A stretch of DNA of 38,571 bases, taken from the NCBI GenBank assembly GCA_010093605.1, contig MU004188.1, positions 24,182 to 62,752 of the forward strand. The letters run 5' to 3'. The first letter of the stretch is position 1; each line of letters begins with the position of its first letter. Source of the DNA: Lophium mytilinum (lineage: Eukaryota). Below, one piece after another: positions 397-35,349 of the stretch. The translations under genes and the position numbers were made by a program. The notes beneath the pieces are model-generated. The model was not told the DNA's origin. It ran no database searches and saw only the letters and a program-made list of their open reading frames with translations.

Positions 397-410
397 CTAC
401 CCCCCCATTT
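397..410 (-). other. Polypurine tract of element A
   Basis: CTACCCCCCCATTT on plus is a G-run followed by TAG immediately before the 3' LTR on minus. Confidence 0.85.
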
Positions 411-469
411 AAGAACGCTAGAAGGAAATAAAAAGAAAAAGGAAAAGAAAAAGAGGTTATAGGCTATAT

Positions 470-3400
470 CGGGTTTAAATATAAGGGCGTAGTTATCTAG
501 TATAGTAAATTATATAGCGTAGTTTAGCTAATTATTAGTTATATACTAGTATATAAGAAGCTAGTATACTTAAGGTATTACTTATAAGGGCTTTTCTATT
601 ATAATAGCTTAGCCTACTTTATACAGCTAAAAATTCTAATCTTATTATAGTTATTATATATAAGGTTGTAATAAACTATATAAGGCTATTAATCGCGGTA
701 TAGAGGTATAGTAAGGTAATTATATAAAGATAAGGGCGTAGGTTGGTATAGAGTAATTATAATTATAATTAGTTAGTAGTAAGGTTATTATTATTATTAA
801 GGTTATTATTATTAGTAAGGCGCGCGCGCTAATTATTATTTAGTTTAAAGTCTAGATAAGAGCCGTTGGCATTAGGGTTAAGGTTATAGAATTTACTAAT
901 TAGGTCCGCGGCTTTAGATATAAATTACTTCTATAGTTACTATTTCTATAGTATAGTATAGCCCTTATAAAGTTCTTTATATTTAAGGTAGTAGTGTTCT
1001 TTTAGTCCGCGGCCGCGCCAGCGGCTATTAATAATGCGCGTAATTAGATATTATTTAACGGACTTAGAGGTAATAGGGTTAATTACCTAAACGGGAGGTA
1101 GTAGTAGCTAGTATTAGCCTAGTAGCGGACGGGACCTATCTAGGTGGAGTAGATATAGGTAGAAGACGGAGTATATTTAAGATTCTTTAAGGCTTATATT
1201 TATAAAGTTAAGTTAAAAGGCGTAACTATTATTAATAATCTTACTAATGTAAAAAGAACTGAGGTTCTTATAATTAAGTAACTTATTTAGTTAGGTAGTC
1301 TTTATATTACGGGCGTTAAGCTAGACCTAGTTATTAACTTAGAGCTTTAGCGGAGGGTTATAGTATTAGTTTATATAGTCTACTTACTTAGTTTATACCT
1401 ATATTATTATAGCCTTATATTTATTTAGAATCTTCTTTATCTAGTTAATATATCTATTACCTTAAAGCTGCCGGCGGCGAATAGTAGTATTATTGCTAAG
1501 GTTTAGTATAGGTAGAGGTTAAGGCGCGGGTTAGGTATTATTTATAATACTAGGTAGAGGTTTAAGGCTAGAGCGCGGGTAAAAACCCTTATTAATAAAG
1601 AATAGCGTTATTATAGTAGAGGTATTAACTTAGTTATTTACTAAAAATTCGCCGATAGGTAAATAATTAACCTAATTATTTTAGCGGTAGTTAATAAATT
1701 ACCTTAGGTAAGCCTTTATAATAGTGTTTATATTTTTAGTTTAGCTATTAGTTTTAGGGTGCGCTACTATAGAAATATTTTAGTAGATACTAAGGCGCTT
1801 ATAGACTTATTTCTAAATATCTAAAATAAAATATAGGTTGTAATTACTAATAATAATGTAAGGAAGTCTATAGAGATAATAGATTTTATAGAGAAAAGTA
1901 TTAATAATATTATAGATAGAAGTACTGCTTATAGAAATATAGTAATATTCCTTACTAGCGCGGTAGATAATAACTAGAATTTTAGTATAGATTTAGCTAT
2001 TACACTTATAGGGAGGGAGCTCTATAATAAAATCTATAGTAATATTAGTCTAATGCTATTCTAGTATATTAAGTAAATGTAGAAGGCCTTATTTCTTATT
2101 ATAGAAGGCCTTTAATTATTTACAACTATAGTAGGCGCTAGTATAGTTTTTAACTAAATTGCGTATACCTAGCTAGAAGTAGTAATGTTAGATAAGTTTA
2201 TATATACTATATTTTTCCGGGTACCTACTAATAGTAGTGTTATAGGTAAGCTATAGAAGCTTAAGGCGTAAATTATTATATATAGGTATATATAATCGGC
2301 CGTAGTAATATAGTTAATTATAGCGGACTTTAAATTTTAAGATATCTAGGTTACTAACTATATTGCGTAGTAATTAAGAAAGTATATATTTACTATTATA
2401 TATAAGCGTAATAAGTTTATAGAGTATAGAGTTAAAGAGCGGTTCTTATAAGTTCTATAGTAGGCTAAAGTAGCCTTTATTAAATAGGTTAGTAAGTATA
2501 CGCTAATAGATTAGGTTAGGGTCTACGTAGAGGTTATTATTATTTACCTAGAGTAGTTTAATTATAAGAGGAGGGTTAGAGTTAAAGTTAGGGTTAGAGT
2601 TAGAGTTAGGGTTAAAGTAAGGGTTAGAGTTAATATTATTATTACGCGCGTAACTATATAGTTATACAGGTGCAAGAAGAAATTAAGAGTATATCTTTAA
2701 TAGTAGCAACTCTATAGCTATTAACGGGTCTAACTCTTTATAGTAAGGTACTAGCCCGATTAGATTTAGTATATAGCCTAGGCTATTATTAGGTAAGCTT
2801 ATTAAAACGTCTAGTAAATAAGATACTACTCTATTCTCTAGGTTATAAGATTTAAGAACCGTTTAGTATTAGAATTAATAGCGAGGATTATTTAGGTCTA
2901 TAGAAAAATCTTATAAATATTTTATAAGGCTATCTAGTTTCCCTTCTAAAACGCCTAGTTAATAGATAATTTTAAAGTTAAAACCGGCGAGAAAGCTAGC
3001 CTAGCGGGCCTGGTAATAGTTAAGGTATTTAGTTAATATAAAGTATTCTAGATTATAATAGTCTATAAGTATATTAGTAGAATTATCTAGGTTAGCGCTA
3101 GCTAATTTAGGTCTCTATTCTTTAAAGGCTTTAATAATAGTAAGTAACTTCTTATTATAGATTTTATAATTGCATTCCTAGGGGTTTATTTTAGAGGAGA
3201 AGAAGGTAATAGAATAGAGTAAGCCGTTTTTACCTTCTTATAATATAACGCTAGCAGTAATATAGTCTAAAGCGTTAGTTTTAATATAGACTTTCTTGCC
3301 GTATTAAAAGTGGTAAAGAATAGGTACTATAGTAAACGCCGTCTTAAGCGCTTAGAAAGCAGTATTATATTTATTATTCTAAGTAAACTACGCCTTAAGC

Positions 3401-5241
3401 TTAGTCTTCTTACTATCTATAGTTTTTATTATAGATATAAGTAGGCTAATAATACGCAAGAATGCGTGTATAAAATATTAATAGAAGTTAGTAAATTTTA
3501 AAAACGCCTATATATCGCGCAGGCATATTAGTATTATCTAGTTAATAATAGCGGCAACTTTCTTAGGGTCTATTTAGACGCCGCTAGTTATAATAATAAG
3601 GCCTAGGTATTTAATTTCTATCTTATTAAATTTGCACTTAGTAAAATTATAGTTAAGGCCGGCTTTATTAAGTTATTTAAAAACTTTAGCAACGTGCTTC
3701 TTATATTATTCTTTTATACTATTTATATAGACTAAGACGTTATCTATATAAGTAGAATAGAAGTTATTAAGGTAGTTATATAGCGTTTAATTAATATAGA
3801 ATTAGAAGCGGCCTAGGCCCCCTATAACACTAAATAGTATAATAAGTAATTTATATTAGCTCTAGTAAGTAGAGAAGGCTATAAGGCCTTTATCTCCCTT
3901 ACGCATTTAAATATAATTAAATGCGGATATAACGTCTAGTTTAGAGTACTACTTAGTATTACTAAGCTTTTAGAGTGTTTCTTAGACTAATAGTAATAGA
4001 TATTAAGTTTTAATTATTATTATATTAACGGCTCTATAGTTAACGCAGAATTAGACCCTACTACCCAGTTTCCGGACGAGAAGTATAGAAGAGGACGTAG
4101 ATAACTATAACTTATAAATAAATCCTTTATTAAGGTTATTATTAATCTATTTCTTAATAACTTTAAGCTCTTCTTTAGATATAGCGTACGGACGGGCTTT
4201 AGGTAGTTTATTAGCGCTAGAAATAAGATTAATTTTATAATTAATTTCTAGTTAATAAGGGGGAAGCGTATTTACTTCTACTTAGTTAAAGATATAGACG
4301 TAGCGGCATAGTTATTTAAGTAGTTATTAAACTATCTCCTTATAGAAGAGGTGCTTCTTAGCGCGCATAAACTTTTTAATATCTTTAGCAGTAATTTTAT
4401 AGACTTTAAGTAGAATATTATTGCCTATATAGAAGGTAATAACTTATAAGCTATTATAAGTAATAATAAAGTTCTTATTCTTATTTTCTAAAGTTTTAAT
4501 AATATAATAAGAAATCTATTTAAGCTTCTATTCTTTATACTTAGAGATGGCGGCTATTTATATATAGGCGTCTATGCTAATAGGTTTCTAGTCTATAAGG
4601 TTATAGTAATTATTAGGTATATTATAAAAACGCATACTATTTACCTAGATAGTAATAGAGTTATAGTTAAAATAGTATATATAGTTCTAGCATAGTTTAT
4701 AGTAAGAGTAAATAAAGTCTAGGCGGCCTACTTTCTAGTTAATAGCTAGGTTATATTCTTAGAGCTAGTTAAGTTCTATAATAATATTATAGTCTCCTAG
4801 GTTAGTAATATAAGCCTAGTAACGGCTCTAATAGCTATTTATATCTATACTAAGAAGGGCTTTATATATTACTTTTTAGGTAATAGCTAATCTATTAGCT
4901 AGTTTAAGAACTTAGGCTTTTTTAAGGGGTTTTAGAGGTAGATTTACTAGGTGCGTAAACTTAGTACTAGTAAATAAATTAGTGGCTCTATAATTAAGAT
5001 AAGAATTAATTTTTATTATTTCTATAGGTTGTCCTTTCTTATAGGTTTATACTATTGCTAAAAGAACTATATTATTTACCCGCTTAATATTAAATCCTCT
5101 ATCTTTATTTTAAAATAGTTTCTATTAAGCTTTACTAAAAGAGGCTGCTAAAATAATAAGCCTTTAGTACTAAAGGTTTTATATAACTAAGTTCTTATTA
5201 TATTATAGACCGCAACTATAGTTTATAACCTTACTTTTCCC
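470..5241 (-). pseudogene. pol: pol relic of element A (protease, RT, RNase H, integrase, chromodomain)
   Basis: Minus strand: RT YIDNV (=YVDDV) near 3735-3750; RNase H TNALDY (=TDASDY) near 3262-3280; protease LNYRAT (=LDCGAT) near 4980-5000; collinear with pol of B. 3' end approximate. Confidence 0.92.
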
Positions 5242-7540
5242 TTAGAACTCTTACCTTTAGAGTAGCTAAAGCCGCGGTTATTATTAAGGGTTTTATAGTT
5301 GTTAAAACTATTATTATCTAAAAGTTCTTTAACGCGAGTAGTATAATTATTAAGACGGGGTGCTAGAAATATATCTATCTAATAAGTAGTAAAGCCTAAT
5401 TTATTAAGTTAATTTATAGAGTAGTATAGATTTTAGGTAAAGTACTTAAGAAGATAGTAGTAGAAATACTTACCCTTCTTTATAAGTGCTTCTTTATTAC
5501 CTTCGCGGAGTTTATTAGGCGGGGCCTAGTTAGAGAGAGGCGTAATCTTAATATTCTCTTAGGTTATAGAGGCAGTAGCTATAGTTAGAGGGCGTAGAGT
5601 GTAGTTATAGTTGCGGTAATTATAGTTATAATTATTACGGTTTTAGTTATTATAATTATAACTATCGCGACTATTATAATTAAAGCCTTAGGGCTAGTTA
5701 TAATTAAAGTTACTAAAGCTACAGTTAGTAGGTTGCGCGTTCTTATTAATACTATTATTATAGAGCTATTTATATATAGTATTAATCTACTATAGGCTAG
5801 TAGTAAAGCCTTTACCTAAAATAGCGCCGGTAATAATATCTAGGCGGAGTTTCTATTTAAGGTTATAGATATTATTATAGCCTCTTTAGCCTAGAAGGTA
5901 GATTATATATAATTTTATTAGTTTCTATATATAATTAGGTATTATACTACTTATCTAGATAAGCTTATAAAGCTTATTCTTAGTAGTGCTAATTTTATTA
6001 GAGTTATTATATTAGAAGTCTAAGAATATAATAGCTTTCTAGATAGTAAGGAATAGCTAGTAGCTATCTTACTAGGTGCGGAAGCCCTTAAGGAGTATGC
6101 CCGTAAGACACTTACTAAGGTAGATAAGGCGTAAGAGTTTACTAGATTTTATAGTATAGCTACTATAGTTAACTTTATTTAGAAATCTATAATAGAACTT
6201 AGAGTACTTATCCTTATTACTTCTAAACTTATCTAGATAGAGCTAGAACTTATCTTCTATATAAGGGACGCTATTTAGAGTAATACTAAGGTTTTAATAA
6301 TCTTTAGACGTCTTAATATAGAAATCTTAGTAATAGTAACAGGGACAGCTTATATTTTATAAATATAAGCGTAAGCGTAAGTATAAGCGTTAATAAAAGT
6401 AACGCTTATAAAAGTAGTTATAATAATAAGATAGGCTATATATATAATTATAGTAATAAGGAAGGCTTTTATTATTAAATAAGGGCGGGCTAGAGTTATA
6501 GCAACCGCGTATATATTCTATAGTGCGGCGAGCTTAATTTTTATTACTTATATACTCTATAGTATAATAAAGTTAATTAATATTATAGTTGCGGCCTACT
6601 AAGAGGCTATTATTAGCTTGTGCTTCTTCTAAGTAGATTACGCTATTAAGGGAGGCGAGTAGATCTTTAGCTACTGCGGTAATAGAGTTAATAGGTAGTA
6701 GAGGAGTAATAGGGTAGTATAGACGGGGCACTATAGGGGGTATTATTATAGAGGCAGCTATAGTAGGCGCAGGTATAGAAGTATACTAAAGTATCTATAG
6801 TATTTTAATTTTATTCTCTAAAGCTATAAGGCGCGTATTATATTTATACTTATTTTTAGCTACTTAAGTAAAATTAGCTATAAGGTATTCTATAATCTTT
6901 CCTTACTCTATAAATTACTTATTAGCCTAAATATAATTCTTCTACTAGGCCTTAATATCTATATTAAGAGAAGTAATAGTCTTATTAAGAGAAGTTACTA
7001 TCTTTTTATAAGTATAGAGTTTATTTTTATATTCTTCTAGTTTAGTTTTAATATTAAGTAGGCGTTTAAGTTTCTTATATATAGCTTCTAACTTATTATT
7101 CTTTTTATTATATTCTTCTTTAAGAACTCTAATCTTATCTTAAAGGTTATACTATACTTTCTAGTTATCTTTATATATCTACTAGAGAATCTTAGTTATA
7201 GCTTAATAGCTTCTAAAAATATAGAAGAAGTAGATAGAGTTAGCTTAGACTTACGCAAGAAAGTCTTAAGAGTCCGTAATCTTAATTAAACTGTTAAACT
7301 AGTTATTACTGGGCAGAAGTAAATAATCTAGAAACTTAGTAACATTATTAATAGCGTTAAGAAACGTGCTCCGGTTGCGGCCCTAACTAGAAGTATAATA
7401 CTTAGTAATAGAGCTATAGATTATTAGGTCTAGAGTATATATAGAATTATTAATATTATTATCTTTAGTAGCGTCTTTATTCTAGGTAAGCTAATTCTCT
7501 TTCTCTTAGGTTAGCTAAGTATCGGCGCGCACTATTTAGG
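5223..7540 (-). pseudogene. gag: gag relic of element A
   Basis: Collinear with gag of B; coiled-coil-like N-terminal part, degenerate zinc knuckle near 5420-5475, ends GGA AAA GTA AGG TTA TAA. Start approximate. Confidence 0.8.
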
Positions 7541-7955
7541 TAGACTGCTAGGTATCTTCTTAGATAGACTACTAGTTTACTAGCTTTTAGAGGGGCGCAC
7601 TCTTTAGAGTCTTATAAGGAGACTTAGAGGGCGCGTAAGACTATAAATAAGATAGTAGTAGAAAGTAGAAGGCTAGTTATAAGCTACTGCGCCTAGAGCG
7701 TCTAGGTTCTATTCTAGCGCCTAGTAGAGGCGGTAGATTACTTATTATAGAGGATATAGTAATAGCGCTTAGTAATATAAAATAGTAGTAAGGTAAGATA
7801 GTATAGCTATATACCCTTTAGTATTATATATATAGTTATATAGGTACGCTTACTAGGCTATTAGATAGCTTAGTAAATAAGAATTAAGGTTTAAGAGTTA
7901 AAGTAGTAATAGTAAAAAAGAATTAGTACTAGTTAGAGTATTAGATACAACCTAA

Positions 7956-8194
7956 TATTATAGTTATAGTATAGAGAGGCTTAGTAGTATAAGGTAACTA
8001 GGTTAAATTTAAGAAGTTATATAAGAAGTAGAAAGAGAGGCTTTTAGAAAGAAACTATATATATAGAGAAGAGAGGCGCGTAGACGCTAGGCAGGCTAGC
8101 GCATAGGCGGCACTAGGTAACATAATAGGTATAGAGGTAGAAGGCTAGTAACAGGTAAATTATATAACTAGAGAATAGAGCGTAATCTATTATA
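7956..8194 (-). repeat. 5' LTR of element A
   Basis: Direct repeat of 158-396; followed on minus by TTAGGTTGTAT at the PBS position. Confidence 0.95.
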
Positions 8195-8199
8195 GCTAT

Positions 8200-11100
8200 A
8201 TTATCTACCCTACTACCTTAATTCTCTAGCGTAACTTTATTAAGTAAACCCGGTAATTTATCTATAGTATTTTACTATCCTTATATATATATACCTTCTC
8301 TACTTTTTTTAACTCTATTATCTAATACCTTATCTATATCTACACCTGCTTCTACCTTATTTTTAAGTTAGGTAAATTCCTCTTCTATAACCTTAGTTAC
8401 TAGTATTAGGTAGAGAGATAATAAGGCAGCGTACTACTCTATCTAAACCTAACTATTATTATACGCTAGTTATATAAACTAACTTATATTAGCTAGCATT
8501 TTCTTCTTATTTATTTATTCTATAGCGTCTATTCTAGAAAGTACTTCTATAGCCTTATTTTATTATACTAAGAATAATTCTACTATAATCTCTTTATTAG
8601 TTATTTATATAAGTATATAAAGTAGTAATATAGTAATAAGAGCTAGTATTTAGTATTATATTATTAGTTCTAGTTATATAGGAGTAGAAGCTGCTATAGT
8701 TTATTAAGCGCGTAAACTTGCGTATAGTATTATAGCCGTCTATAGAGTATTCTAGAGGGTAAGGATAGTATATATACCTATATATATATATAGTATAGCT
8801 ATAGATTTAAGAAATACTTTATAGAAATAGTATATAGTAGATAGAATCTAGCCTAGAGCTCTATTATTATTATTTACGGCTTACTAAGGTATCCCTACGC
8901 TAGAAGGTAGTAATAGAGAGGGTAATACCTCTCTAGTATCTAGAGATAGTAGTAATATAGGTGTATAAGAAGATAATATAGAAGATATAGATAATAGTAA
9001 CTCTAATACTACCTCTTCTACTTCTTTATCTACTTAGGCTACTTCTTTATTTACTTTACTTTCTTTAGCTACTTCTTCTTCTTCTTTAACTACTGCTCTC
9101 TTAATAGTTTATATAATAGTATACTTACTACTATTACTTTAATCTTACTCTATAGCTTCTATTAATTCTATATTACTTTAAATTTTAGGTATATATTAGG
9201 CTACTCTTAACTTACTAGAGTATATACTACTACTAGTAGACTACTAGGTATAAGAAAGTTATATTAGTTAAGTAGGTTAAGAGGTTAGAGAAGTAAGAGA
9301 ATAAGTACTACTATAAGTAGCCCGCCCTAGAGTAGAATATTAGGTGGGTTTAGTAGATAGAGAAGGAGTAGTAGAATAGATACTACTATAGGTAGACTAC
9401 TATAGAGAAGTATATTATATAGGTTATATAGGTTAGATAGATAGAAAAGAAATAGTAAAATAGGTACTACTATAAGTAGACTACTGCAGAGAAGTATATT
9501 ATATAGATTAAGTAGAGGTAGAAGATAATAATTCTTCTATTAAGACGGGTTCTACTTAAGTTTATTAGAACCTAACTATAAATACTAGAAGATTATAAAA
9601 GATATACTAATTATAAGTTATATAATAGTTTTCTCTAAAGGCTTCTAAGGTATAATTAGTTATTAAAAGGGCGTAGGCGCAGGGCGGGTAGAATAAGGGG
9701 CCCTAATATTTATACTAGAAAGACCTCTAGGGTTTTTAAAGATAATTAGAAATAGATCTAGAATAGAAGTAGAAGTAGGCTTACTAGCCTTTTCTACTGC
9801 AGCTATTTAGTCTATAGCCCTCTTCTTTTTATCTCTCTTACGTTGGTTTAAATCTACTATTAAATGTAATTTAGCTACTTTTTACTCTTTTTTATTCTAG
9901 TACTTTTAGGGGCGTTCTATACTAACTACTAGGTATAGTAGTAAGAGGGATAATAGTTTAGAATATAGAGCTAAGAAGCGGAAAGTAGTTAAAGAGTATA
10001 ATTAGTTAAAAATAAGAATTTATTAATATTCTTATTATAGGGCTTACTCTGCCTAACCTATTTTAACACCCCTTATAGATACAGCTACTTAGTTAAGATT
10101 ACTAGGGAAGGGCCCTAGTAGGAAGGCTTTCTATAGTAGCTCTATTAATTACTTTATCTATAAATATTATATAAACTATATTCTACCCTTTACTTTATAT
10201 ATTTTATTTAATGCGGCTAAAATTTCTATTATATAAGAATACTATCTAGTAGCAACCTATACTAAGGTAAGGCTATTATAATATAAAACCCTTTCTATTA
10301 TATCTATTACCCTCTATAGGTACCTACTACTAGGACTTTACCTTTTCTATAATACTTTAAATTTAATTATATATACTATATATAGTATTATAGCTCTATT
10401 ATAGTATCTTAATATCTAGGAGTTATTATATATAGTAGTAGAAGGCTACTTAATTATAGAGCTATACTCTATGCTACTAGCTACTCTCTTTTCTTACTCT
10501 CTATACCTACCTAGAGCTATAACTATAGCCTATAAAATATTTCTAAATTACTAGAATACTATTATATTATATAATAAGTAATTTTCCTTATAAATATCTT
10601 TAATTTTATATTATAGTAGTTCTATATAGCGCTAGTTAAGGTCTTTATTAAGTATAAGGCTAGTATTATACTAAACTCTTTAAGTAACTTCTATTATTTA
10701 GAATCTTACCTCTATATATAACTACTACTACTACTATAGCCTATATATTAATTCTAAGTTAATAAATTACTATTATATTATATATTATATATAATTCTTT
10801 ATATATTTCTTCTATACTATATTATAGTAGTTATATACAGTAGTAGTTATACTAATTCTTAAGTATAAGGCTATTCTTACGCTAAACCCTTTAAGTAATT
10901 TCTATCCTATGCCTACATACTCTATAGCCTCTCTATACCTACCTTAAGCTACTACTACAGCTTATAAATTAAATTAAAGTTAATAGAACGCTATTATATT
11001 ATATTCTAAGTATTATTCTTTGCATGCATACTCTATTTTATATTATAGTAGTTAAATGCGGCGGTGTAAGGTTATACTATATATAATTCTTAAAGGTTAA

Positions 11101-11300
11101 TTTTCTTTATATTAAACTTACTTCTCTCTATCTAACTCTAACCCTCTAGCCCCTATAATAGTAGTAAATAAAAAACTAGATTATCTATAGAATTCTATAA
11201 GAAGATAGTAGATATTTTACGCTACCTCTTCTTCTATATATTAGGCGATAGAATAGAGTCTATAGAAGGGGTTCTAATAAGGCGTCTATTAAAGGTACTA
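8200..11300 (-). pseudogene. Unidentified intron-containing ORF relic (Glu/Lys-rich, Ser/Thr/Pro-rich and internally repeated segments); may be the C-terminal part of the SNF2 gene
   Basis: Minus-strand codon-like runs such as AVVKEEEEVAKESKV (about 9050-9100) and RKRDKKKRA (about 9815-9845); GT-AG intron-like segments; 8200-9266 duplicated at 37505-38571. Confidence 0.55.
10460..11070. repeat. Degenerate tandem repeat, about 210-220 bp unit, at least 3 copies
   Basis: TATTATAGTAGTT recurs at 10609, 10820 and 11041; TAAGTATAAGGCTA near 10650 and 10860; CTCTCTATACCTACCT near 10498 and 10929. Confidence 0.7.
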
Positions 11301-14300
11301 AGAGGGCTAGAAGATAGAGTTAAAGTAGGTTAATAGGCAGAAGTAGAAGCTACTATAATAGTTAGCACTTAAGTAATATAATAGGCGATACTAAAGGGCC
11401 CTAGTAGAAAGGCTTCCTAAAAAGGCCCTAGAATAAATTCTTACCTATATACTTTATAAGGAATAAAGTATTATTCTTATACTCTTTACCTTTAGAGTTA
11501 TTACTATTTAGCCTACTAAAAGGGTTATTATTATCTATATTACTAAAAATAGCGGGCACTTAATATAAAGGGTTATACTTTAGCCTATATTAATAGATAA
11601 AAGGGGTATAAGCCTTTCTAGTAGTACTCTTTATAGGGGTAGGCATATTAGATTTAGTAGAATTTAAGTCTTTAACTATAATAGTAGACTTAGGGTTAAG
11701 CTTATACTTCTTAATAGTAGCCGCTAGTATAGCACTAGCTTTACGCTTCTACTTTAAAGCTTTACTATTTTATTACTCTAGCGTTTTTAGCTTTAGCTTT
11801 AGGGTGGCTTTTACTATAAAATATAGATTAGTAAAGTATAAAGAGGTAAGTAGAGCCCTAGTAGAAAGCCTTCCCGCTAGAATCTATAAGGGCAAACTTA
11901 CTACTTATAGAATAATACTTAAGCCTTAAACCTAGCTTATTAATATGCAGTTTCTTAGGCGCTCTACTTACACCCTTCTTCTACTCTTCTTCTAATTCTA
12001 ATTTAGTAAATTTATACGCTTATTCTTCTTAAAACTTATTACTAAACCTATTAGACTAAAAAGTTATATTACCTTATATAAGAGTTATTAGAAATATAAG
12101 AATATCTTATAGAAAGTTAAAGCGCTTAATATATAATTCTACTAGCATATTTAAAATATCTATTTTACCTATAATAAGGCGGGGTGTAATACTCTTATTA
12201 TTATAGGTTACCTATATATACTAGCTATCTAGGGTTAGCTTTTCCTTAGAGGTCCCCTCTACCTTAATCTAGTTAGTATTTAATATAGTAGTAAGACTAG
12301 AAAGCGCTATCTATACCTAGCGTAAGAGAGTAAAGGCATTAAATATATTCTAGATAAAGAACGCAGTTACTATAATAGTAAACTTCTAGCTAATCCTATA
12401 TAAACGCGCTATTACCTACTTCTTAATCTAAATAGAGCCTGCAGGGTTAAAAAGATATATATTATAATAAGTAGACTATAGATTAAGTCTAGCTCTATTA
12501 GTCTAGTAACTAGTAATAAGAATCTTTACTTTAGAGTTAGGGTTATTAAATAATAAGATAAGGTTATCCCGGTTAGTAGTAGAGAGATTAGAGGCTAGTA
12601 TATAAGTATCTATTTTATAATAGTTAATAATCTTAGTAAGAATTATTTACTTATCTAGGTAGTTAGTCTAGATAATAACCTTCTCTATATACTTAATAAT
12701 ATTATTAGCTAAATAGTATAGTAGTGTAGCTACTTTAGGGGTATTATAGATAAAAAGGGTAATAATATAATAAAAGGGTGCAGACTTTACTTTAAAGTCT
12801 TTCTAATTAGGGTTAGTTTAGATATTCTTATTCTAGGCAATTTACTTTATTATGCCTTGTAAAACATCTATTTCCTTTAACTAGTAACCGCTATTATTCT
12901 TAAGAGGGATAATTTTTAGGCCGTTCTTAATCTTATTACCCTCTAAATCTAAGACCTTCTCTTGCGGATATACTATTATAGCGCGCTTAAAGTAGACTAA
13001 AAATAGCGTAGTACTTATAAGATTAAGAGTATATATAGAGCATGTATTAAATATATAGGTACGCTAGCCTATACAGTTCTTAGTAGAAACTATTAATAAC
13101 TTAAGATAGCTTAGTAATTTATTAGTATAGATAATATAGCCTAGTTTTATAGGCTATAGCTTAATTACTTATATAACTAACTATAGAAGTAATCCTCTAA
13201 TTTAGATAGTAGAATTAGTAGAATTATTTAGGTATATAGAAGGGTATAAGTAAGTAATTATATACTTACTAAAAATTAAGTATAAATAAAGCCTCTATAT
13301 AATCCTAGAGAAATATTAGAAAATTAAAGTAAATAAGAGAAGAAATAAAAGCCCTAGCTAGAAGTCTTTCTACTAGGGCCCTTTATATAATAACTTACAG
13401 GTTAAATAAAGGTAGAATAAAATTTTTAAAAGCCTTACGTGTATACTAGAAAATTACACCTAAATAGTTATTAGAAAGCTTAAATAGATTATTAGTACCC
13501 GGAATAAACTTAGCTTTACCGGGTTTTAAGCGGTACGTGCGGAATTATAGATACTTATCTCTTAGTTCTATAAAAGATATATAAGTAGGTATATTAGTAA
13601 TACCTATATATAGCGGGGTTCTACTATAAAGTATAGTAAAGTCTAAGTAAAGCTATAATATAGTTAGGTAGAGGTTTACTTAGTTACTTTTAATAAGCTA
13701 GCACTTGTCTATAAATTAGACATTAAAATAGCTACTTAAGAGACTAGGCTAGGTAGAGCTTAGGCAATATTTAACCTAGTTCTTTAGCTTAGTAAGATTA
13801 TTATTACTATACTACTTTAATGCGGGCTAGGGACTATACTAACTAGCTATTACCTAATAGCTGGCGATTATAATACTCTTAGCATTCGCCTTATTTTTAG
13901 TATTAAATAAGGGATAGTCCCTAGTTAAGGTATTATATAGAAATATAGCGCTATAGAAAGTAACTTAGCCCTTTAATAAATAGATATAGAGCTTAAGTTT
14001 AAAACTAAACTATATAAGTTTATTTGCTATTTAGTATACTAAAATAGAAGGTATAAGAAAAAGAAAGAGCTTTACTAGCCCGGGGTCTTTCTTATCTATA
14101 ACTTTGCGCTGGCGCTTAGTAATAAGCTATAATTAAATTAGTAGATGCTAAGAGAAACTATTAAAGGGGTAGTAGAAAGGCTTTCTATTAATACCCTTTA
14201 AAGAGAAATTACTTATATATCTAATAAGGGTAGCTATTAAAAATGTCTTTCTAATACTAATCTTATCTATAATTAAAGCCCTACTAAGAAAGCCTTTCTA

Positions 14301-16400
14301 TATAATATAGTATATATAGTAAGCCCTAGTAATACTACTACCTTAAGTAAATATTACTATTTATTATAATAAGGCGGGGTTTCTAATAGTTATAAATATA
14401 TAGGGCCTTTATTACTTCTTTAAGGTTATCTAGCTAATAGGCTTTATTAGTTATTAGAAGGCGGAGTATACTTTATATTATAAGATCTACCGCGGTTAAT
14501 ATAGTAAAGGGGATAATATTCTTTATATTAATAGTAGTAGCCCTTATATTAGCCTCTATATCTTAGGCATATTTAATACTATCTAGATTAGTATACTTAT
14601 TCTTATTTAGATCTATAGCGCATATATTTAGGTGCTATTTAATAGTATATATAAAATCTTCTACTATCTATCTAATTACCTAATATATATTATATTAAAA
14701 CTTTAATAAGTTCCAGTTAATTATTACTCTAGTGCGCTTAGCATGCGTAATTACTAACTTAAGCTTCTATTTTATAGTACTAGTAATATACTTAGTACTA
14801 GTAATATTAATATTATCTTTCTTCTTATTAACTAGGTTTATAGTAATTTTCTCTTTAGATAACCCCTAGATAGGGTTATCTATATTAACCTCTATATTAA
14901 TAGCCGCAAGTTCCTTCTTAGTAAAATAAGAGGGCGACTACTAATAGGGAGGCCTAGAAGGGCCTTAATAGAAAGGCTTTCTATTAATATTCTTACTACT
15001 ATAAGTAATAGTTTTAGCCGGGGTCTTAGGTACTAGTGCTAGACTAAGCTTTATTTTTTAAAGAATATTCTATATCTTAATTTAGTTCTTAATATAGACA
15101 GTTCTACTAGCTTAAGACAGGCTACTTTTAAATTCTATATTTTTCTTTAATTTAAAGAAGATTCTAAGCGCTTTATTATTAGTAATATTAGCACAGTTAT
15201 ATAAAAACCTACTAAACCGCTTCCAGTAGTAATTAAAGCATTAACTAATAAATTAAGCTACCTAATCTACGGGTTTATAGTTATCTATCTTAGGCTAAGA
15301 AGTAGTATATTACTATAGATTATATAACTTACTAGTCTTAAAAGTATTTAGAATAGTAGTAAAACTAGCCTCTTAATTTTAACTATATATAGCGCGCTTT
15401 AGGTCTAAATACCTATTCTTATACTTATTTTAAATTACTTAAAAATTAGGCTTAGCTAGAATTACTTTAAGTTCTACTTTTATTTAACTATAAAGCTTAG
15501 CTAACTTTATTCTACTAGTATATAGCGTATTTACTAAGGCCTATAACTTCTCTAACTTTTTATCTTTTCTACTACTAGTAACTAGCGCTTAAAGCTTTTC
15601 TTACTCTTTATTAAAGTTCTTAGAAATATTAGAGTTATTACTATAGTTATTACTATCTAGATAAACTACTTTACTATTTACTAATATAAGCGTCTCTAGA
15701 TCTATTATAGTGGCCGGCTAATTACGCTTTAAATTAATATAGGTATTAACCCCTAATTTAGTAACTAGTAGAGAGGTAGAATTTAGATCTTCTAGCACTT
15801 TAGAAGAAGTAGATTATTTCTTATAGCTATTTACTAGGTTAGTTATAGGTAATATATATAGGAATGTAATCTTTACTACTACCTTACTAGGGTCCCTATT
15901 ACTTAAGGTATTTATAGCTAGCCTATTAATATATTAGCTTATCTTAAATAATAGAAGAAAGAAGGTAGATAAAGAGCCCTAGTAGAAAGGCTTTCTACTA
16001 AGACCCTATATACTATGCCGGGTATTTTTAGTATTATTATTTTCTTAATATTTTCTACCGCCGCATCTTTAAAATTAAGGTAGACTAATCTACTAAGACT
16101 AGTAAAGGGCTCTAGTAGAAAGCCTTTCTATAATAATCCTTATAATATACTTACCTTACTCTACTCTTAGAGAAATTGCAATAGAATAAACCTATTAGTA
16201 GAATTAGCTATAATATAACTTAATTTTACCTGCTAGATAGTAAACTTACTAAAAGGCTTAACCGCTAGCTAAAAGAACGCCTAAAACTAGCTAATTACGG
16301 CTCTAATATAGCTAGAAAGCTGCTAACTATTATCTAGCAAGTAAGAAACTAGCGTGCAACTATTCCGCAGGTAGCTAGATAAGTAGAAGTAATAGAGGTG
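11300..16400 (-). pseudogene. SNF2/SWI2-family (SF2) helicase-like ATPase gene relic, multi-exon
   Basis: Minus-strand motifs in the expected order (observed, then de-RIPed): SRALIIDKISIRKT = GGALIADExGIGKT (motif I, about 14245-14285); IDKC*LIK = VDECQLIK (II, 13689-13712); YSRTP = YSGTP (III, about 13613-13628); FNNPNSKVKILI and RARLNL*S = GAGLNLQS (V, about 12470-12552); FNP...*VIARLYRIS*K = QVIARLxRIGQK (VI, about 12385-12452). Outer boundaries approximate. Confidence 0.85.
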
Positions 16401-16684
16401 CGGTAGTATAGAAAAAGAGGTTAGTATAGAAGTAAGAAAGTTAAAGCTGCTAGGCAGTAGATAAGTTTATAGGCGGCCGGGCTAATAGCCGCCGGCTACT
16501 AAGATACTAAGCCTTTAATAGTAAACTACTTAAGTTAACTCTTAAGATTAATATAATAGCTATATATTATATAAGGTTAAAATATCGCAGGTATAAATAT
16601 ATTAGTGTTTTACTTAATTTTACTAATATATAAATATTTATAGTTAATCTATAATACTATACTATATATTACCTAGTTCTAGTA

Positions 16685-16694
16685 NNNNNNNNNN
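16685..16694. other. Assembly gap with duplicated flanks
   Basis: 10 N; 16638-16684 is repeated exactly at 16695-16741. Confidence 0.9.
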
Positions 16695-16989
16695 TTATAG
16701 TTAATCTATAATACTATACTATATATTACCTAGTTCTAGTAATATAGTACTACGCTAAGATAGGTTAATAGAATATTGCGCGTTATTATATAACTATTTA
16801 TTTATAGTATAAGAGTTTTACTAGAAAGCTTTTCTACTAGAGCTCTTTACTACTTATATTAAGTATACCTATTATTACCTCTCTTCTTATATATATTACT
16901 GCTATATACCTACTAGATAAGAATTTGCGTACTATATAAGAGCCTAGCTAGAAGCCTTTCTACTAACGCTCTTTATATTTTATACTAAA

Positions 16990-18761
16990 TACTTTACTAT
17001 CTTTCTTATTAATAATTCTTCTTTATAACGCCGCCCCTACTAGTCTACCTATTAATACTTAAATCTATATACTCCTTAAAACTCTTCTACTTAAGCCTTA
17101 TTCTTCTAGGCCTCTTACTCTAAGTTCTTTAAGTTTTCTATTTCTAAGCTATAGTTACCTAAACTCTCTTTATACTTATACTCTTTATCTAATAACTAAC
17201 TACTTATATCCCCCTCTTACTTCTTCTATATTACTAAATAATTCCGGAATTCTTTAATTATTAGAATCCTGCCTAAATAAGCCCTTAGGCTATTTAGTAT
17301 ATAGTACTTAAATCTAAGCTAGATATATTTTAGATTAACTTAACCCCTAGGGCCTATAATATTATCCTCTATTATTATTATCTTTAACTTTCCTAGGCTT
17401 TCCTAGGTTATATTCTATACTTCCTTTGCAACTATATCTATACTAAGGTTAACTACCCCCCCTTAAGCCTATTCTTTAATATATTAGCTTAGTTAGGCTA
17501 CCTTATAGTAGTAGTTATTTAGTAGTTATATATAGATCTACTATATATTTATAATTATATCTCTTCCTCTAATATTATCTTATATATCTTTAGAGTTATT
17601 TTATTTAGCTTAATGCGTGGTTAAAATTTTATTATTATTATATCTTAGAAGAACCTAGAGTAATAAGGCGGCTCTTACTTATAGATTATTAAGGAATTAT
17701 TCTACTATTTTTAGTAACGCTTTATTTCTAATTATTATATTTAATCTTTACAATTTTATATAGAAGGGACTATTATTCTATTTTTAAGTTTCTATAGCTA
17801 GATCTATAATATTAAATAGCGGCTAGACTTAATTAATCTAGCGTCTAGTTAAGTATATTAGATAATTTATATTACTATTTCTAGCTATATTCTATATACA
17901 GGCGTAGCTTACTATAAGTTCTAACTTTATATATAGCCTTATAAGTATATTAAAATAAAGCGCAACTATAGATCTATATAGAATACTCTTAAGAAATTAG
18001 TTATATAGTTCTTTACTCTTCTATTATATCTTAGTATTTCTATCTTCTTCTATATACTATCTACTTAGAAGCTTATATATATTAGTATAGTATACCTTAA
18101 TAATAAGCGCAGCTACCTTACCTATCTATAGCGGTGCCGATTACTAATCTTTTTATACTTTAGTTCTATTTTTATATTAAATAGCTAGTATATACTATGC
18201 TATAATACTATACTATAGATACTATATCTCTATATTCTTCTTAGTAAGAGATACCTAGATCTAAGCTTTAGTAAATATAGCTTAGAATTAATTCCTAAGG
18301 CCGGCTTACAGTTAATTAACGCCTTAAGAACTAAGTTATAGAGGCGTTATTATCTAATCTAAGTACTCTAACTTTAGCTAAGCTATACTATACTTCTTAA
18401 GGGAGTCTAATAATCTAAGGCTATATAAGGTTATAGAATTCTAGGGGTCTTTTTAATTTATCTACTCTTTTTTCTATAGTATAGATAATTAAGTAGAATT
18501 ACTATATCTAGTAGTAATTTATATAAGGTAAATATAAAGAGATGCTAAATAACTATTTACTAGCTATTTATCTAGTATTACTATATGCCTAGTATTACGC
18601 CCGGGGGTAACCTAAAGAGATAGTACCTAGAAAAGAAATATCTAGTAATTAAGGTTTATAATAGTAAAGGTATTAACTTCTTCTATAGAAAGAACCTAGT
18701 AGGGGTAATAAGACTTACTACTATTATCCGGCCTATTCTTTATAGTAAATTTAGAACTTAC
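16990..18761 (-). pseudogene. Unidentified ORF relic of the host element, interrupted by element B (5' part continues at 35350-35573)
   Basis: One minus-strand frame reads as protein for about 1.6 kb if TAG/TAA are restored to Gln/Trp; candidate intron GTAAGT...TTTCTAG at about 18628-18717; TSD links it to 35350. Confidence 0.5.
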
Positions 18762-19004
18762 TATAATAGATTACGCCCTATTTTCCGGTTATATATTTAC
18801 CTATTACTAGCCTTCTACCTCTATACCTATTATATTACCTTGCGCCGCCTACGCGCTAGCCCGCCTAGCGCCTACACGCCTCTCTTCTCTACATATATAG
18901 TTTCTATCTAGAAGCCTCTCTTTCTACTCCTTACACAACCTCTTAAAATTAACCTACCTAGTTACTTTATATATACTAAGCTCCTCTATACTATAACTAT
19001 AATA
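18762..19004 (+). repeat. 5' LTR of element B
   Basis: Direct repeat of 35107-35349; TATATA at 18894-18899. Confidence 0.95.
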
Positions 19005-21689: not shown

Positions 21690-24600
21690 ACTAGAGTTGC
21701 GGTCTATAATATAATAAGAACTTAGTTATAGAGAATCTTTAGTATAGAAGGCTTATTATTTTAGTAGCCTCTCTTAGTAAAGCCTAATAGGAACTATTTT
21801 AAAATAAAGATAGAGGATTTAATATTAAGCGGGTAAATAATATAGTTCTTTTAGTAATAGTATAAACCTATAAGAAAGGACAACCCGTAGAAATAATAAA
21901 AATTAATTCTTATCTTAATTATAGAGCTACTAATTTATTTACTAGTACTAAGTTCGCGCACCTAGTAAATTTACCTTTAAAACCCCTTAAGAAAGCCTAA
22001 GTTCTTAAACTAGCTAATAGATTAGCTGTTGCCTAAAAAGTAATATATAAAGCCCTTCTTAGTATAGATATAAATAGCTATTAGAGCCGTTACTAGGCTT
22101 ATATTACTAATCTAGAAGACTATAATATTATTATAGAACTTAACTAGCTCTAAAATTATAACCTAGCTATTAACTAGAAAGTAGGCCGCCTGGACTTTAT
22201 TTACTCTTACTATAAACTATACTAGAACTATGTATACTATTTTAACTATAACTCTATTACTATCTAGGTAAATAGTATGCGTTTTTATAATATACCTAAT
22301 AATTACTATAACCTTATAGACTAGAAACCTATTAGCGTAGACGCCTATATATAAATAGCCGCTATCTCTAAGCGTAAAGAATAGAAGCTTAAATAGATTT
22401 CTTATTATATTATTAAAACTTTAGAAAATAAGAATAAGGACTTTATTATTACTTATAACGGCTTGTAAGTTATTACCTTCTATATAGGCGATAATATTCT
22501 ACTTAAAGCCTATAAAATTACTACTAAAGATATTAAAAAGTTTATGCGCGCTAAAAAGTACCTCTCCTATAATAAGATAGTTTAATAACTATTTAAATAA
22601 CTACGCCGCTATATCTATATCTTTAACTAAGTAGAAGTAAATATACTTTCTTCTTATTAACTAGGCGTTAATTATAAAATTAATCTTGTTTCTAGCGCTA
22701 GTAAACTATCTAAAGCCCGTCCTTATGCTATATCTAAGGAAGAGCTTAAAGTTATTAAGAAATAGATTAATAATAACCTTAATAAAGAGTTTATTTATAA
22801 ATTATAATCCTCTACGTTCTCTCCCGTACTTCTTATCTAAAAACCGGGCGGTGGAGTCTAATTCTATATTAACTACAGAGCCGTTAATATAATAATAGTT
22901 AAAACTTAATACCTATTACTACTAGTCTAAAAGACTCTCTAAAAGCTTAGTAACACTAAATAGTACTCTAAGCTTAATATTATTTCCGCCTTTAACTATA
23001 TTTAAATGCGCGAAGGCAATAAAGGCCTAATAGCCTTCTCTACCTAATAGAGTTAATATAAATTGCTTGTTATGCTATTTAGTATTACTAGGGGCCCTAG
23101 ACGTTTTTAGTTCTATATTAATTAAACACTACATAACTACCTTAATAACTTCTATTCTATCTATATAAATAATGTCTTAGTCTATATAAATAGTATAAAA
23201 GAATAATATAAGAAGCATATTACTAAAGTCTTTAAACAACTTAATAAAGCTAGCCTTAACTATAATTTTACTAAGTGCAAATTTAATAAGATAGAAATTA
23301 AGTATCTAGGACTTATTATTATAATAGGCGGCGTCTGCATAGACTCTAAGAAAGTTGCCGCTATTATTAACTAGAAAATACTAATGTGCCTACGCGACGT
23401 ATAAGCCTTCTTAGAATTTACTAACTTCTACTAACGCTTTATATACGCGTTCTCTTAGATTATTAATCTACTTATATCTATAATAAAGACTATAGATAGT
23501 AAAAAGACTAAACTTAAGGTATAGTTTACTTAGAACGCGGAATGCAACTAAGCTTTCTAAGTACTTAAGATAGTATTTACTACTATATCTATTCTACGCT
23601 ACTTCTAATATAGTAAGAAGGTCTATATTAAAATAGACGCTTCTAACTATATTATTACTAGCGTTATATCTTAAGTAGGGGAGGACGGTCTACTCTACTC
23701 TATTGCCTTCTTCTTATCTAAAATAAGCCCCTAGGAATATAACTATAAAATCTATAATAAGGAGCTACTTGCTATAGTTAAGGCTTTTAAAGAATAGTAT
23801 CTAGAACTAGTAAGCGCTAATCTAGATAACCCTATAGATATACTTATAGATTACTATAATCTAGAGTACTTTATATCTACTAAGTACCTTAATTATTGCT
23901 AAGCCCGCTAGGCTAGTTTTCTAGCCGGATTTAACTTTAAAATTATCTACTAACTAGGCGTTCTTAGAGGAAAACTAGATAGCCTAATAAGAAGATTATA
24001 AGACCTGCCTACTAATCTAGATAACCCCTGTAATTAGTTTTAGCACTAAATAGTCCTTAAGTCTTATAACTTAGGGCTAGGAGTAGCATCTTATTTACTA
24101 GATATTTAAATAAGCTTACCTAATAATAGCCTAGGCCGCACGCTAAACCTAATTAGGCTACTGCCTTGCTATAAAGAGTTAGACCTATTAATAACTATAG
24201 AGTTACTACTATTAAAGATATACTCTTAATTTCTTCTTACACCTATATAGTTATGTAGCTACACGCGCAATAATAATATTAACTCTAACCCTAACTCTAA
24301 CCCTAACTCTAACCCTAACTTTAACCCTTACCTTAAACCTAATCCTTCTCTTGCAATTAAACTACTCTAGGTAAATAATAATAACCTCTATATAGACCCT
24401 AACCTAATCCGTTAGTATATACTTACTAAACTATTTAATAAAGGCTACTTTAGCCCGCTATAAAACTTACTAGAGCCGCCCTTTAACTCTATACTTTATA
24501 AACTTATTACCCTTATATATAATAGTGCGCGCGCACTACTCTAACCTTTATATAATATTATTAGCAATCTTAATATCTTAGAATTTAAAGTCCGCTGTAA

Positions 24601-35040: not shown

Positions 35041-35106
35041 TACTATTTTCTTTTTCTTTTCCTTTTTCTTTTTATTTTTCTTCCAGCGTTTTTAAATAGG
35101 GGGTAG

Positions 35107-35349
35107 TGTAATAGATTACACCCTATTCTCTAGTTATATATTTACCCGTTACCGGCCTCCTGCCTCTATACCTATTATATTACCTCGCGCCGCCTACGCG
35201 CTAGCCCGCCTAGCGCCTACGCGCCTCTCTTCTCTACGTATATAGTTTCTACCTAGAAGCCTCTCTTTCTACTTCTTATATAACCTCTTAAAATTAATCT
35301 ACTTAGTTACTTTATATATACTAAGCTCCTCTATACTATAACTATAATA
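35107..35349 (+). repeat. 3' LTR of element B (PPT at 35094-35106)
   Basis: Begins TGTAAT after AAATAGGGGGTAG; direct repeat of 18762-19004. Confidence 0.95.

Follow-up and report, generated by a model that had tools for sequence, protein, structure and literature searches.

A 39-nt palindrome family in predicted introns of a decayed SNF2-family gene of Lophium mytilinum

How does one short palindrome come to lie, copy after copy, in the introns of a single gene, and what has multiplied, the palindrome or the intron that carries it? The question is raised by a stretch of 38,571 nt from Lophium mytilinum (GenBank assembly GCA_010093605.1, contig MU004188.1, positions 24,182 to 62,752 of the forward strand), which is called the window below and in whose coordinates all positions are given. 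Eleven copies of a 39-nt palindrome, c1 to c11, are found here within and beside a minus-strand gene that is identified by homologue profiles as an SNF2-family ATPase gene and that has been destroyed, probably within a repeated segment, by repeat-induced point mutation (RIP). Six copies lie 4-17 nt 3' of the donors of six predicted, otherwise ordinary introns, a partial copy (c6) is found at the 3' end of a seventh and short one, another copy (c7) lies in the reading frame, one (c1) in non-coding DNA downstream, and two (c10, c11) are there by segmental duplication. A tie between the palindromes and minus-strand predicted introns of this gene is supported by the frame and splice-signal analyses given below, and it is proposed tentatively, as an explanation still somewhat short of an even chance, that a tiny foldback insertion module has colonised the introns of this one SNF2-type gene.

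The palindrome family

In full, the unit reads AAAGGGCCC-TAGTAGAAAG-S-CTTTCTACTA-GGGCCCTTT, which is a perfect palindrome. Its 21-nt core, TAGTAGAAAG-N-CTTTCTACTA, has one exact match and seven matches with at most three mismatches, all of them between 11402 and 16839, where 0.05 matches are expected by shuffling and the maximum in 100 shuffles was one. By half-site scanning and alignment a total of 11 copies was recognised within 10107-16974, with centres at 10126, 11412, 11869, 13365, 14180, 14293, 14976, 15990, 16123, 16829 and 16955, and the remainder of the 38,571-nt window contains none. The original prediction had counted about 11 copies in about 7 kb and had noticed none in the surrounding retrotransposon stretches, and it is borne out on both points; that the copies occur in both orientations, as it also stated, is meaningless for a perfect palindrome, and by their flanks c10 and c11 repeat c8 and c9 in direct orientation. 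Across 20 aligned half-sites, information content drops to background outside the 39 nt. A palindrome extending further, to a splice-site mimic of the form GTAAAG...CTTTAC, was considered and rejected, as half-site information beyond the 39 nt is negligible.

The present sequence of the copies has to be read against the state of the DNA around them. The window is AT-rich throughout, with a GC content of 0.18-0.35 in 1-kb bins, and in all five blocks into which it was divided the RIP signature is near-saturating (TpA/ApT 1.82-1.87, threshold about 0.89; (CpA+TpG)/(ApC+GpT) 0.14-0.22, threshold about 1.03), so that the DNA is RIP-mutated by both indices. As RIP is saturating, the visible consensus is the post-RIP sequence, and since at three half-site positions at least two copies have kept a C or G in place of the T or A of the majority, the original palindrome was richer in G+C. 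As RNA, the majority consensus would form an 18-bp stem of -29.4 kcal/mol, and in the present copies folding is only modestly more stable than in shuffles (z -1.6 to -1.9 in seven of nine, above 0 in two of nine), the folding being modest because of the RIP damage. In each copy, one arm is near the consensus and the other is far more degraded, transversions included; on the gene strand the degraded arm is the 5' arm in c1, c2, c3, c5, c7, c8 and c9, and the 3' arm in c4, c10 and c11. Such an asymmetry is not expected from RIP alone, which should affect both arms equally.

The two copies furthest upstream of the gene are not independent of the others. The spacer between c10 and c11 aligns directly with the exon between c8 and c9 (41 identities, 31 transitions, 11 transversions), and in a purine/pyrimidine alphabet the alignment has a z of 5.4, which was reached by none of 1000 shuffles. 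To judge from this alignment, c10 and c11 belong to a segmental duplicate of about 220 nt whose divergence has the pattern expected of RIP. Apart from the tandem arrays and the palindromes, the stretch 8490-18758 showed no further internal duplications when compared with itself in the same purine/pyrimidine alphabet. The segment 14100-14760 was tried as a duplicate of 14896-15580 and rejected, its score being marginal (122.5 against a shuffle maximum of 120) with 143 transversions.

In other sequence collections the motif has left hardly a trace. Rfam has no matching family, the sole match in the search being a sub-threshold chance match to mir-146 that lies elsewhere, and the 21-nt core is found neither in metagenome contigs nor in viral contigs. 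Among the prokaryote genome contigs there is one exact match, at 301-321 of contig L001 from a bacterial metagenome-assembled genome, which forms a hairpin without the GGGCCC flanks and is judged to be chance, as about one match is expected in a collection of such size.

Some further traits of single copies may be added. At c3, between 11850 and 11901, the inverted symmetry reaches outward, with a 5' GTAAGT that pairs with ACTTAC directly past the palindrome, and a plus-strand GTAAGT lies 4 nt from the palindrome, which makes c3 the sole copy with a donor-like string on both strands. A solitary half-palindrome, made up of the centre and one arm, lies within an exon at 11610-11625, and a possible twelfth copy, heavily degraded, can be made out at about 9698-9737 as GGGCCCTA...TACTAGAAAG A CCTCTAGGG.

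The SNF2-family gene and its predicted introns

The host gene was recognised through its homologues. The translation of 11902-13198 in frame 2 was compared by HMMER with all of 1.84 billion proteins, of which 84 match at E<=1e-3; the best is P0001 (E=3.3e-30), and the long matches contain the Pfam domains SNF2-rel_dom and Helicase_C. A profile made from 34 homologues matches 14072-13344 with 63.2 bits and, in another frame, 13132-12230 with 120.9 bits, which confirms the minus-strand SNF2 protein of the original prediction; a profile from the 9 longest homologues gives 39.7 bits (14282-13344, motif I included) and 91.0 bits, and tblastn with P0042 and P0011 supports the same core region. In a direct Pfam comparison of the RIPed translation, Helicase_C alone is seen, below its cut-off of 23.5 bits (14.6 bits; E=0.039), and there is no direct match to SNF2-rel_dom. 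By way of the homologue profiles, the gene product is assigned an SNF2 N-terminal ATPase part with motifs I-III and a Helicase_C domain. P0001 is a 'hypothetical protein' of the Joint Genome Institute (JGI) on a contig of 1,762 bp, for which no longer homologue was found and for which a search for near relatives returned P0001 alone; the look-alikes in the protein atlas are mainly from Ascomycota, the RIPed translation has no homologue among 7,995 scored candidate proteins, and of 97 matches to the P0001 pattern in metagenomes none was confirmed. The 5' end of the gene is uncertain because RIP destroyed most ATG codons, and its 3' limit was set where the coding signal ends.

Introns were modelled by joining the nearest GTAAGT-type donor 5' of a palindrome to the first CTRAY...YAG module 3' of it, and reading frames were followed with a codon log-odds model. 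The Viterbi path passes through f1 (16335-16042), f0 (16041-14344), f1 (14343-13402), f2 (13401-11836), f0 (11835-11365) and f2 (to 10933), and all five frame switches in the gene body are at most 30 nt away from a palindrome segment (c8, c6, c4, c3, c2), with no switch in the gene body at a place that has no palindrome. If six revised introns (c8, c6, c5, c4, c3, c2) are taken out and c7 is kept, there is one frame of 1,540 codons with +392 bits, in which the 104 stops are all TAA or TAG, and the other frames then score -315 and -531 bits. Without splicing, no frame is positive (-156, -40, -291 bits); if the 43-nt c7 segment is removed in addition to the revised set, the frame is broken; and if the c8, c7, c5, c4, c3 and c2 segments are removed as originally drawn, the best frame has +85 bits. 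Removal of the revised six restores the frame, and removal of the original set does not.

The models of the single introns (Table 1) are of differing firmness. For c4, the model has the top score with the family hidden Markov model (HMM), 200.2 bits, among 49 models with one or two GT-AG introns. For c5, the HMM is unable to separate an intron from read-through, the homologue P0042 has a gap of 22 residues at this place, and the donor ATAAGT is probably a RIPed GTAAGT. The partial copy c6, which the original prediction had missed, supplies the acceptor of its intron from within the right arm, and the coding sequence of motif I begins immediately after it. An 8-nt direct repeat, TAGGGCTT, is present twice in or beside this intron, 45 nt apart, the second copy being coding and lying just ahead of SNF2 motif I. 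This repeat flanks no palindrome copy other than c6, and it may be akin to a target-site duplication or fortuitous. The frame upstream of c8 fits only with a short exon that starts at the ATG of 16066 in f2, and c9, which ends just before that ATG, is possibly an intron of the 5' untranslated region. The palindrome c7 lies in a stretch of 527 codons that scores 132.6 bits as a single frame (shuffle maximum 54.8), and no in-frame GT-AG pair of sensible size was found for it, although an in-frame intron of 105 nt with weak signals (14892-14996) is possible.

The splice signals point in the same direction as the frames. Donor, branch site and acceptor of the U2 type are present in c2, c3, c4, c5 and c8, are weaker in c9 (TTAAT...AAG) and in c6, where there is no branch consensus, and are lacking in c7. 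Complete canonical intron modules exist at seven loci of the gene body, five of which hold a palindrome, and at five loci of the plus strand, none of which does. A strict donor is found 5' of the palindrome on the minus strand in five of the 11 copies (background 0.083), and a RIP-tolerant donor in nine of 11 (background 0.25), as compared with one of 11 on the plus strand. We infer from the sequence that the palindrome segments were spliced out.

Eight intron segments had originally been drawn, three of which stand (11814-11901, 13305-13398 and 15923-16013), and these do have the separate CTAAT branch site that had been claimed for the longer segments, together with a GTAAGT or GTATAT donor and a YAG acceptor. 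Four others do not stand as drawn: the frame of the adjoining exons is broken by three of them, at 11391-11444 (54 nt), 14158-14216 (59 nt) and 14954-14996 (43 nt), and the fourth, 16099-16154 (56 nt), is at odds with the frames on either side, which themselves score weakly. The eighth segment, 10102-10152, lies where no coding signal is present. With these four falls the proposed short design of 43-59 nt in which the hairpin arm takes the place of the branch site, the introns that agree with the frame being about 90 nt long and having ordinary branch sites. In c2, c5 and c9, a CTAAY...YAG module lies 35-40 nt further 3' and leads to lengths of 92, 90 and 88 nt, and two of these demonstrably fit the frame; the apparent donors and acceptors close to the palindrome in those short versions seem either fortuitous or part of the ends of the palindrome itself. 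It was also considered whether every short form might have its acceptor directly after CTTTCTACTAG in the right arm. Such an acceptor suits c6 and could suit c2 and c9 as well, yet the versions of 88-92 nt, which have real branch sites, are preferable. A mirtron-like hairpin intron was discarded, since in the frame-compatible introns a further 35-48 nt, normal branch site included, come after the hairpin. It is a practical lesson that short 'introns' drawn by eye around a palindrome are unreliable in RIP-saturated DNA, in which codon-model frame tracking together with a homologue profile did recover the gene structure.

Table 1. Positions of the palindromes, predicted introns, gene and tandem repeats in the window
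Feature	Positions	Strand	Remarks
Palindrome c1	10107-10145		Sequence without coding signal
Palindrome c2	11393-11431		Inside intron c2
Palindrome c3	11850-11888		One arm keeps G/C where most copies have A/T
Palindrome c4	13346-13384		Inside intron c4
Palindrome c5	14161-14199		Inside intron c5
Palindrome c6, partial	14274-14312		Centre and right arm present; outer right arm coding
Palindrome c7	14957-14995		Within one continuous reading frame
Palindrome c8	15971-16009		Best preserved; exact 21-nt core
Palindrome c9	16104-16142		Inside tentative intron c9
Direct segmental duplicate of the c8-exon-c9 block	16790-17000		Holds c10 (16810-16848) and c11 (16936-16974)
SNF2-family gene, RIP-inactivated	10933-16066	minus	Minimal extent; profile matches and codon frame
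SNF2 ATPase core, motif I to Helicase_C	12230-14282	minus	Split by introns c5 and c4
Predicted intron c2	11353-11444 (92 nt)	minus	GTAAGA...CTAAC...TATAG; f0 to f2
Predicted intron c3	11814-11901 (88 nt)	minus	GTAAGT...CTAAT...TATAG; f2 to f0
Predicted intron c4	13305-13398 (94 nt)	minus	GTAAGT...CTAAT...TCTAG; f1 to f2, phase checked
Predicted intron c5	14127-14216 (90 nt)	minus	ATAAGT...CTAAT...TATAG; in frame
Predicted intron c6	14284-14341 (58 nt)	minus	GTAGTA...CTTTCTTAG; f0 to f1; partial palindrome at 3' end
Predicted intron c8	15923-16013 (91 nt)	minus	GTATAT...CTAAT...AATAG; downstream f0 firm
Tentative intron c9	16067-16154 (88 nt)	minus	GTAAGT...TTAAT...AAAG; ends before ATG 16066; adjacent frames weak
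Tandem array	9289-9524		3' of SNF2 gene (minus strand); three units of 75-84 nt, clear in purine/pyrimidine self-comparison
Tandem array	10497-11053		3' of SNF2 gene (minus strand); three units of 211-221 nt, clear in purine/pyrimidine self-comparison

Insertion module, copied intron or signal

What can be aligned between the introns is the 39-nt palindrome only, the heads and tails being without clear homology, and the distance from the donor G to the palindrome in the long introns is 14, 13, 13, 12, 17 and 4 nt. These introns have 88-94 nt, of which 49-55 nt are left without the palindrome, and about 50 nt is the ordinary size of a fungal intron. According to the explanation that is tentatively preferred here, the 39-nt palindrome would itself be the spreading unit, a foldback insertion that consists of inverted repeats and nothing else, and it would have multiplied inside one SNF2-family gene of an ascomycete. 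The insertions that survived would be those in a part of the intron where a self-folding 39-mer does no harm to splicing, because folding out leaves an intron of about 50 nt, and the whole gene would have fallen to RIP afterwards. We infer that the palindrome was inserted as a module and was not inherited with each intron, that it moved in such a way, and that the hairpin was neutral for splicing. The conservation of the core alone, with differing flanks and donor offsets, favours this, as do the ordinary residual intron size and the copies outside canonical introns (c7, c1, c6). Furthermore, 20 of the 84 homologue open reading frames start in a stretch of 44 positions just after motif I, at about 8.6 times the density found further downstream, which is the pattern that gene callers give when an intron sits there, at the c5 site; with an accuracy of about 12 residues, the c5 position may therefore be old and shared with the homologues, which would favour insertion into an existing intron. 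Insertion of repeats into regular introns has been reported to produce look-alike introns in fungi (Collemare et al. 2013, PMC3609843).

Several points weigh against such an insertion. There is one copy in each detectable intron and none of these is empty, which has a probability of 7!/7^7 or about 0.006 if seven hits fall at random on seven introns and which is unlikely unless insertion was saturating or targeted. The donor offsets are similar in four of six introns (12, 13, 13, 14 nt) and the palindrome-to-branch tails are more alike than shuffled tails (reached by 0 of 500) and random exon pieces (4 of 500), both of which are predictions of whole-intron copying, though the likeness of the tails may be one of composition and not of homology, because they are T-rich. 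No consistent direct repeat indicating a target-site duplication (TSD) was seen by eye at the edges of palindromes or introns in this RIPed and AT-rich DNA, where a 2-nt duplication of the TA type could hide; terminal inverted repeats (TIRs) are trivially present, as the unit consists of two 19-nt inverted arms. To our knowledge, no free-standing mobile palindrome of 39 nt has been described in fungal nuclear genomes. The codon log-odds table was trained on two profile-supported stretches that make up about 580 of the 1,540 codons of the very gene to which it was applied, and distribution and mobility are judged within this 38.6-kb window. The further-reaching claim that a free-moving palindromic micro-element of 39 nt homes to a site directly downstream of the 5' splice site, or gives rise to introns at that site, and has so filled every intron of the SNF2 gene, is on the unlikely side.

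The alternative to an inserted module is multiplication in the manner of introners, as the original prediction had suggested with its self-propagating introns: an ancestral hairpin intron of about 90 nt would have been copied within the gene or its transcript, for example by reverse splicing, reverse transcription and recombination, and later the rest diverged and the hairpin was kept. This is possible, if with more doubt than confidence, and it would account for the uniform length of 88-94 nt, the similar place of the hairpin, the single palindrome in each intron with no intron left empty, and the likeness of the tails, as well as for the stability of the consensus hairpin. It would also agree with introner-like elements (ILEs) in the roughly doubled length, stable structure, canonical signals and, as far as can be seen, the lack of TSDs (PMC3609843; Gozashti et al. 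2022, PMC9860276), and symmetrical proliferating introns are documented, sometimes twice in one gene (PMC8469720). That identity is limited to the 39 nt would require strong selection on the hairpin alone and fits the insertion of a module somewhat better; c7, c1 and c6 would be left unexplained, the c5 position may be common to the homologues, and known ILE families occupy many unrelated genes. Selection figures also in the view that each intron needs the hairpin as a functional RNA or DNA signal that is kept up by selection or gene conversion, such as a protein-binding site, a substrate of a double-strand RNA nuclease that yields small RNAs, or a device that shortens the intron. The single copy at a similar place in each intron and the conserved core amid diverged flanks would suit a signal, and a transcript with several identical hairpins would look like a small-RNA cluster, yet this view is improbable: no match exists in Rfam, the folding of the present copies exceeds that of shuffles only modestly (for which RIP accounts), one arm is far more degraded in each copy, c1 and the in-frame c7 have no place in it, and the origin of the copies is not accounted for. 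For the array of protein-binding sites that was originally considered, there is no positive evidence.

Two explanations would do without any mobile or functional hairpin. Duplication of exon and intron blocks evidently produced c10 and c11 from the c8-exon-c9 block, and half of the reported same-gene intron duplications in fungi are segmental (PMC3609843), but as the whole story it is refuted and most improbable, as the flanks of c2 to c6 are different, non-repeated SNF2 motifs colinear with the homologues, and 8490-18758 holds no further duplicated blocks. It would equally take much to believe that the palindromes belong to a transposon as its internal repeats, the introns being feigned by AT-rich, RIPed DNA. 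It is true that GTAAGT-like and TAG strings are common in such DNA, the 8,401 nt of 9000-17400 having 72 RIP-tolerant donors on their minus strand, that four of the eight original segments fail the frame test, and that the introns are predicted from sequence alone; but the 1,540-codon frame appears only after six segments are removed, the c4 intron tops the profile scores exactly as first drawn, and donors and complete modules are strand-specific. Moreover, Pfam, with X in place of stops and in six frames, gave no domain at all in 9000-17400 or 17300-18760, neither a transposase nor any other transposon domain, though it is insensitive here. Intact relatives, if they exist, could separate a mobile hairpin from one that marks the copying of whole introns and from one that acts as a splicing signal.

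Known systems and the surrounding sequence

The origin of new introns and its tie to short repeats is an open question, for which ILEs and sister introns point to hairpin structure while the mechanism is lacking, and here the shared part of the introns shrinks to a bare 39-nt hairpin at a fixed site behind the 5' splice site. Introners of algae that are of the type of miniature inverted-repeat transposable elements (MITEs) are said to have been described by Huff et al. in 2016. They and other intron-inserted repeats resemble the present case in being short inverted-repeat elements inside introns, and in being confined to introns because hits in exons are harmful or because the element supplies splice signals (PMC3609843; PMC9860276). 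The algal Introners have TIRs and TSDs and occupy thousands of genes (PMC9860276), whereas the unit here is a pure palindrome of 39 nt without visible TSD that stops short of the intron ends, its copies being seen in one gene. Ascomycete Introners are reported, in the same source, to lack TIRs and TSDs, unlike the algal ones.

The ILEs of Dothideomycetes (PMC3609843, where van der Burgt et al. 2012 is cited) share with the introns described here the canonical splice signals, about twice the usual intron length, a stable predicted hairpin, no visible TSD and the presence in many copies. ILEs are, however, near-identical over the whole intron and are spread over tens to hundreds of unrelated genes (PMC3609843), while here 39 nt are shared and one gene is seen; greater length and stable structure are thus found, and near-identity of the whole intron is not, in a comparison that is blurred by RIP. 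Same-gene intron duplications of fungi are alike in that one gene has several related introns, and the relation of c10 and c11 to c8 and c9 is segmental as well, but those introns have normal length and no special stability, with at most 16 members per species (PMC3609843), and in the present gene 6-7 introns share a hairpin module and not their whole sequence. In Hypoxylaceae, the internally symmetrical sister (stw)introns (Fekete et al. 2021, PMC8469720; PMC12403724) are likewise proliferating introns built on inverted repeats with a central palindrome; they have no TSDs, and a gene sometimes contains two of them. Their inverted repeats of 45-55 nt each reach the intron ends and form the intron, around the central palindrome TTTCTAGAAA (PMC8469720), and a symmetrical intron of this type was rejected for the present case, in which the palindrome is internal, has 39 nt and another sequence, and is followed by a tail with an ordinary branch site. 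With such symmetrical introns, ILEs, same-gene duplications and intron-inserted repeats in print (PMC8469720, PMC3609843), it was too strong to say that this is not a described system, although a relevant publication was not met with among the 15 papers listed out of 82 that contain at least one of four motif strings, those listed dealing with primers, barcodes and the like.

The RIP-affected repeat family X3X3R8 of a Dothideomycete, Parastagonospora nodorum, carries Rad5/SNF2-like helicase genes (Hane and Oliver 2010, PMC3017866) and so offers a setting for a RIPed SNF2 gene that lies among retroelements; it is likened here by description only, and the string 'palindrom' is absent from the main text of that paper. 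A kinship of the SNF2 stretch to X3X3R8 is only a lead. Dispersed palindromes of 30-40 nt that form hairpins are known as repetitive extragenic palindromic (REP) elements in bacteria and as GC clusters in mitochondria. We know of no link of these to spliceosomal introns, and they belong to other genomes and other machinery. From all of these the present case is set apart by a bare internal palindrome of 39 nt that keeps to a fixed position past the 5' splice site and recurs in each of the introns detected in one gene. If the proposed micro-element is real, it would be a nuclear, intron-linked counterpart of REP and GC-cluster palindromes and the smallest introner-type module so far. The RIP-wrecked SNF2 gene is an unusual fossil with a bearing on the spread of short mobile sequences and of introns.

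The palindromes and the SNF2 gene lie in a stretch of 10.3 kb, at about 8490-18758, that is bounded by direct repeats resembling long terminal repeats (LTRs). Such repeats, with 87-95% identity, are found at 1-396, 7952-8489 and 37348-37794 and, as another set, at 18759-19004 and 35104-35349, and there is a pair of related segments, 22730-23374 and 30529-31170, at an offset of 7.8 kb. To judge from these repeats and the segment pair, several LTR-element copies seem to surround the SNF2 stretch. A Pfam comparison of 400-7950, made on the plus strand with stops read as X, gave no reverse transcriptase, integrase or other domain, and Pfam is insensitive in such DNA. At 16640-16742, a run of 10 N (16686-16695) has the same stretch of about 46 nt, TTATAGTTAATCTATAATACTATACTATATATTACCTAGTTCTAGTA, on either side, which looks like an artefact of assembly or gap closing and not like biology. 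Upstream of the SNF2 gene, at 16461-16495, a short G+C-rich island, GGCGGCCGGGC...GCCGCCGGC, stands out amid the RIP-saturated DNA.

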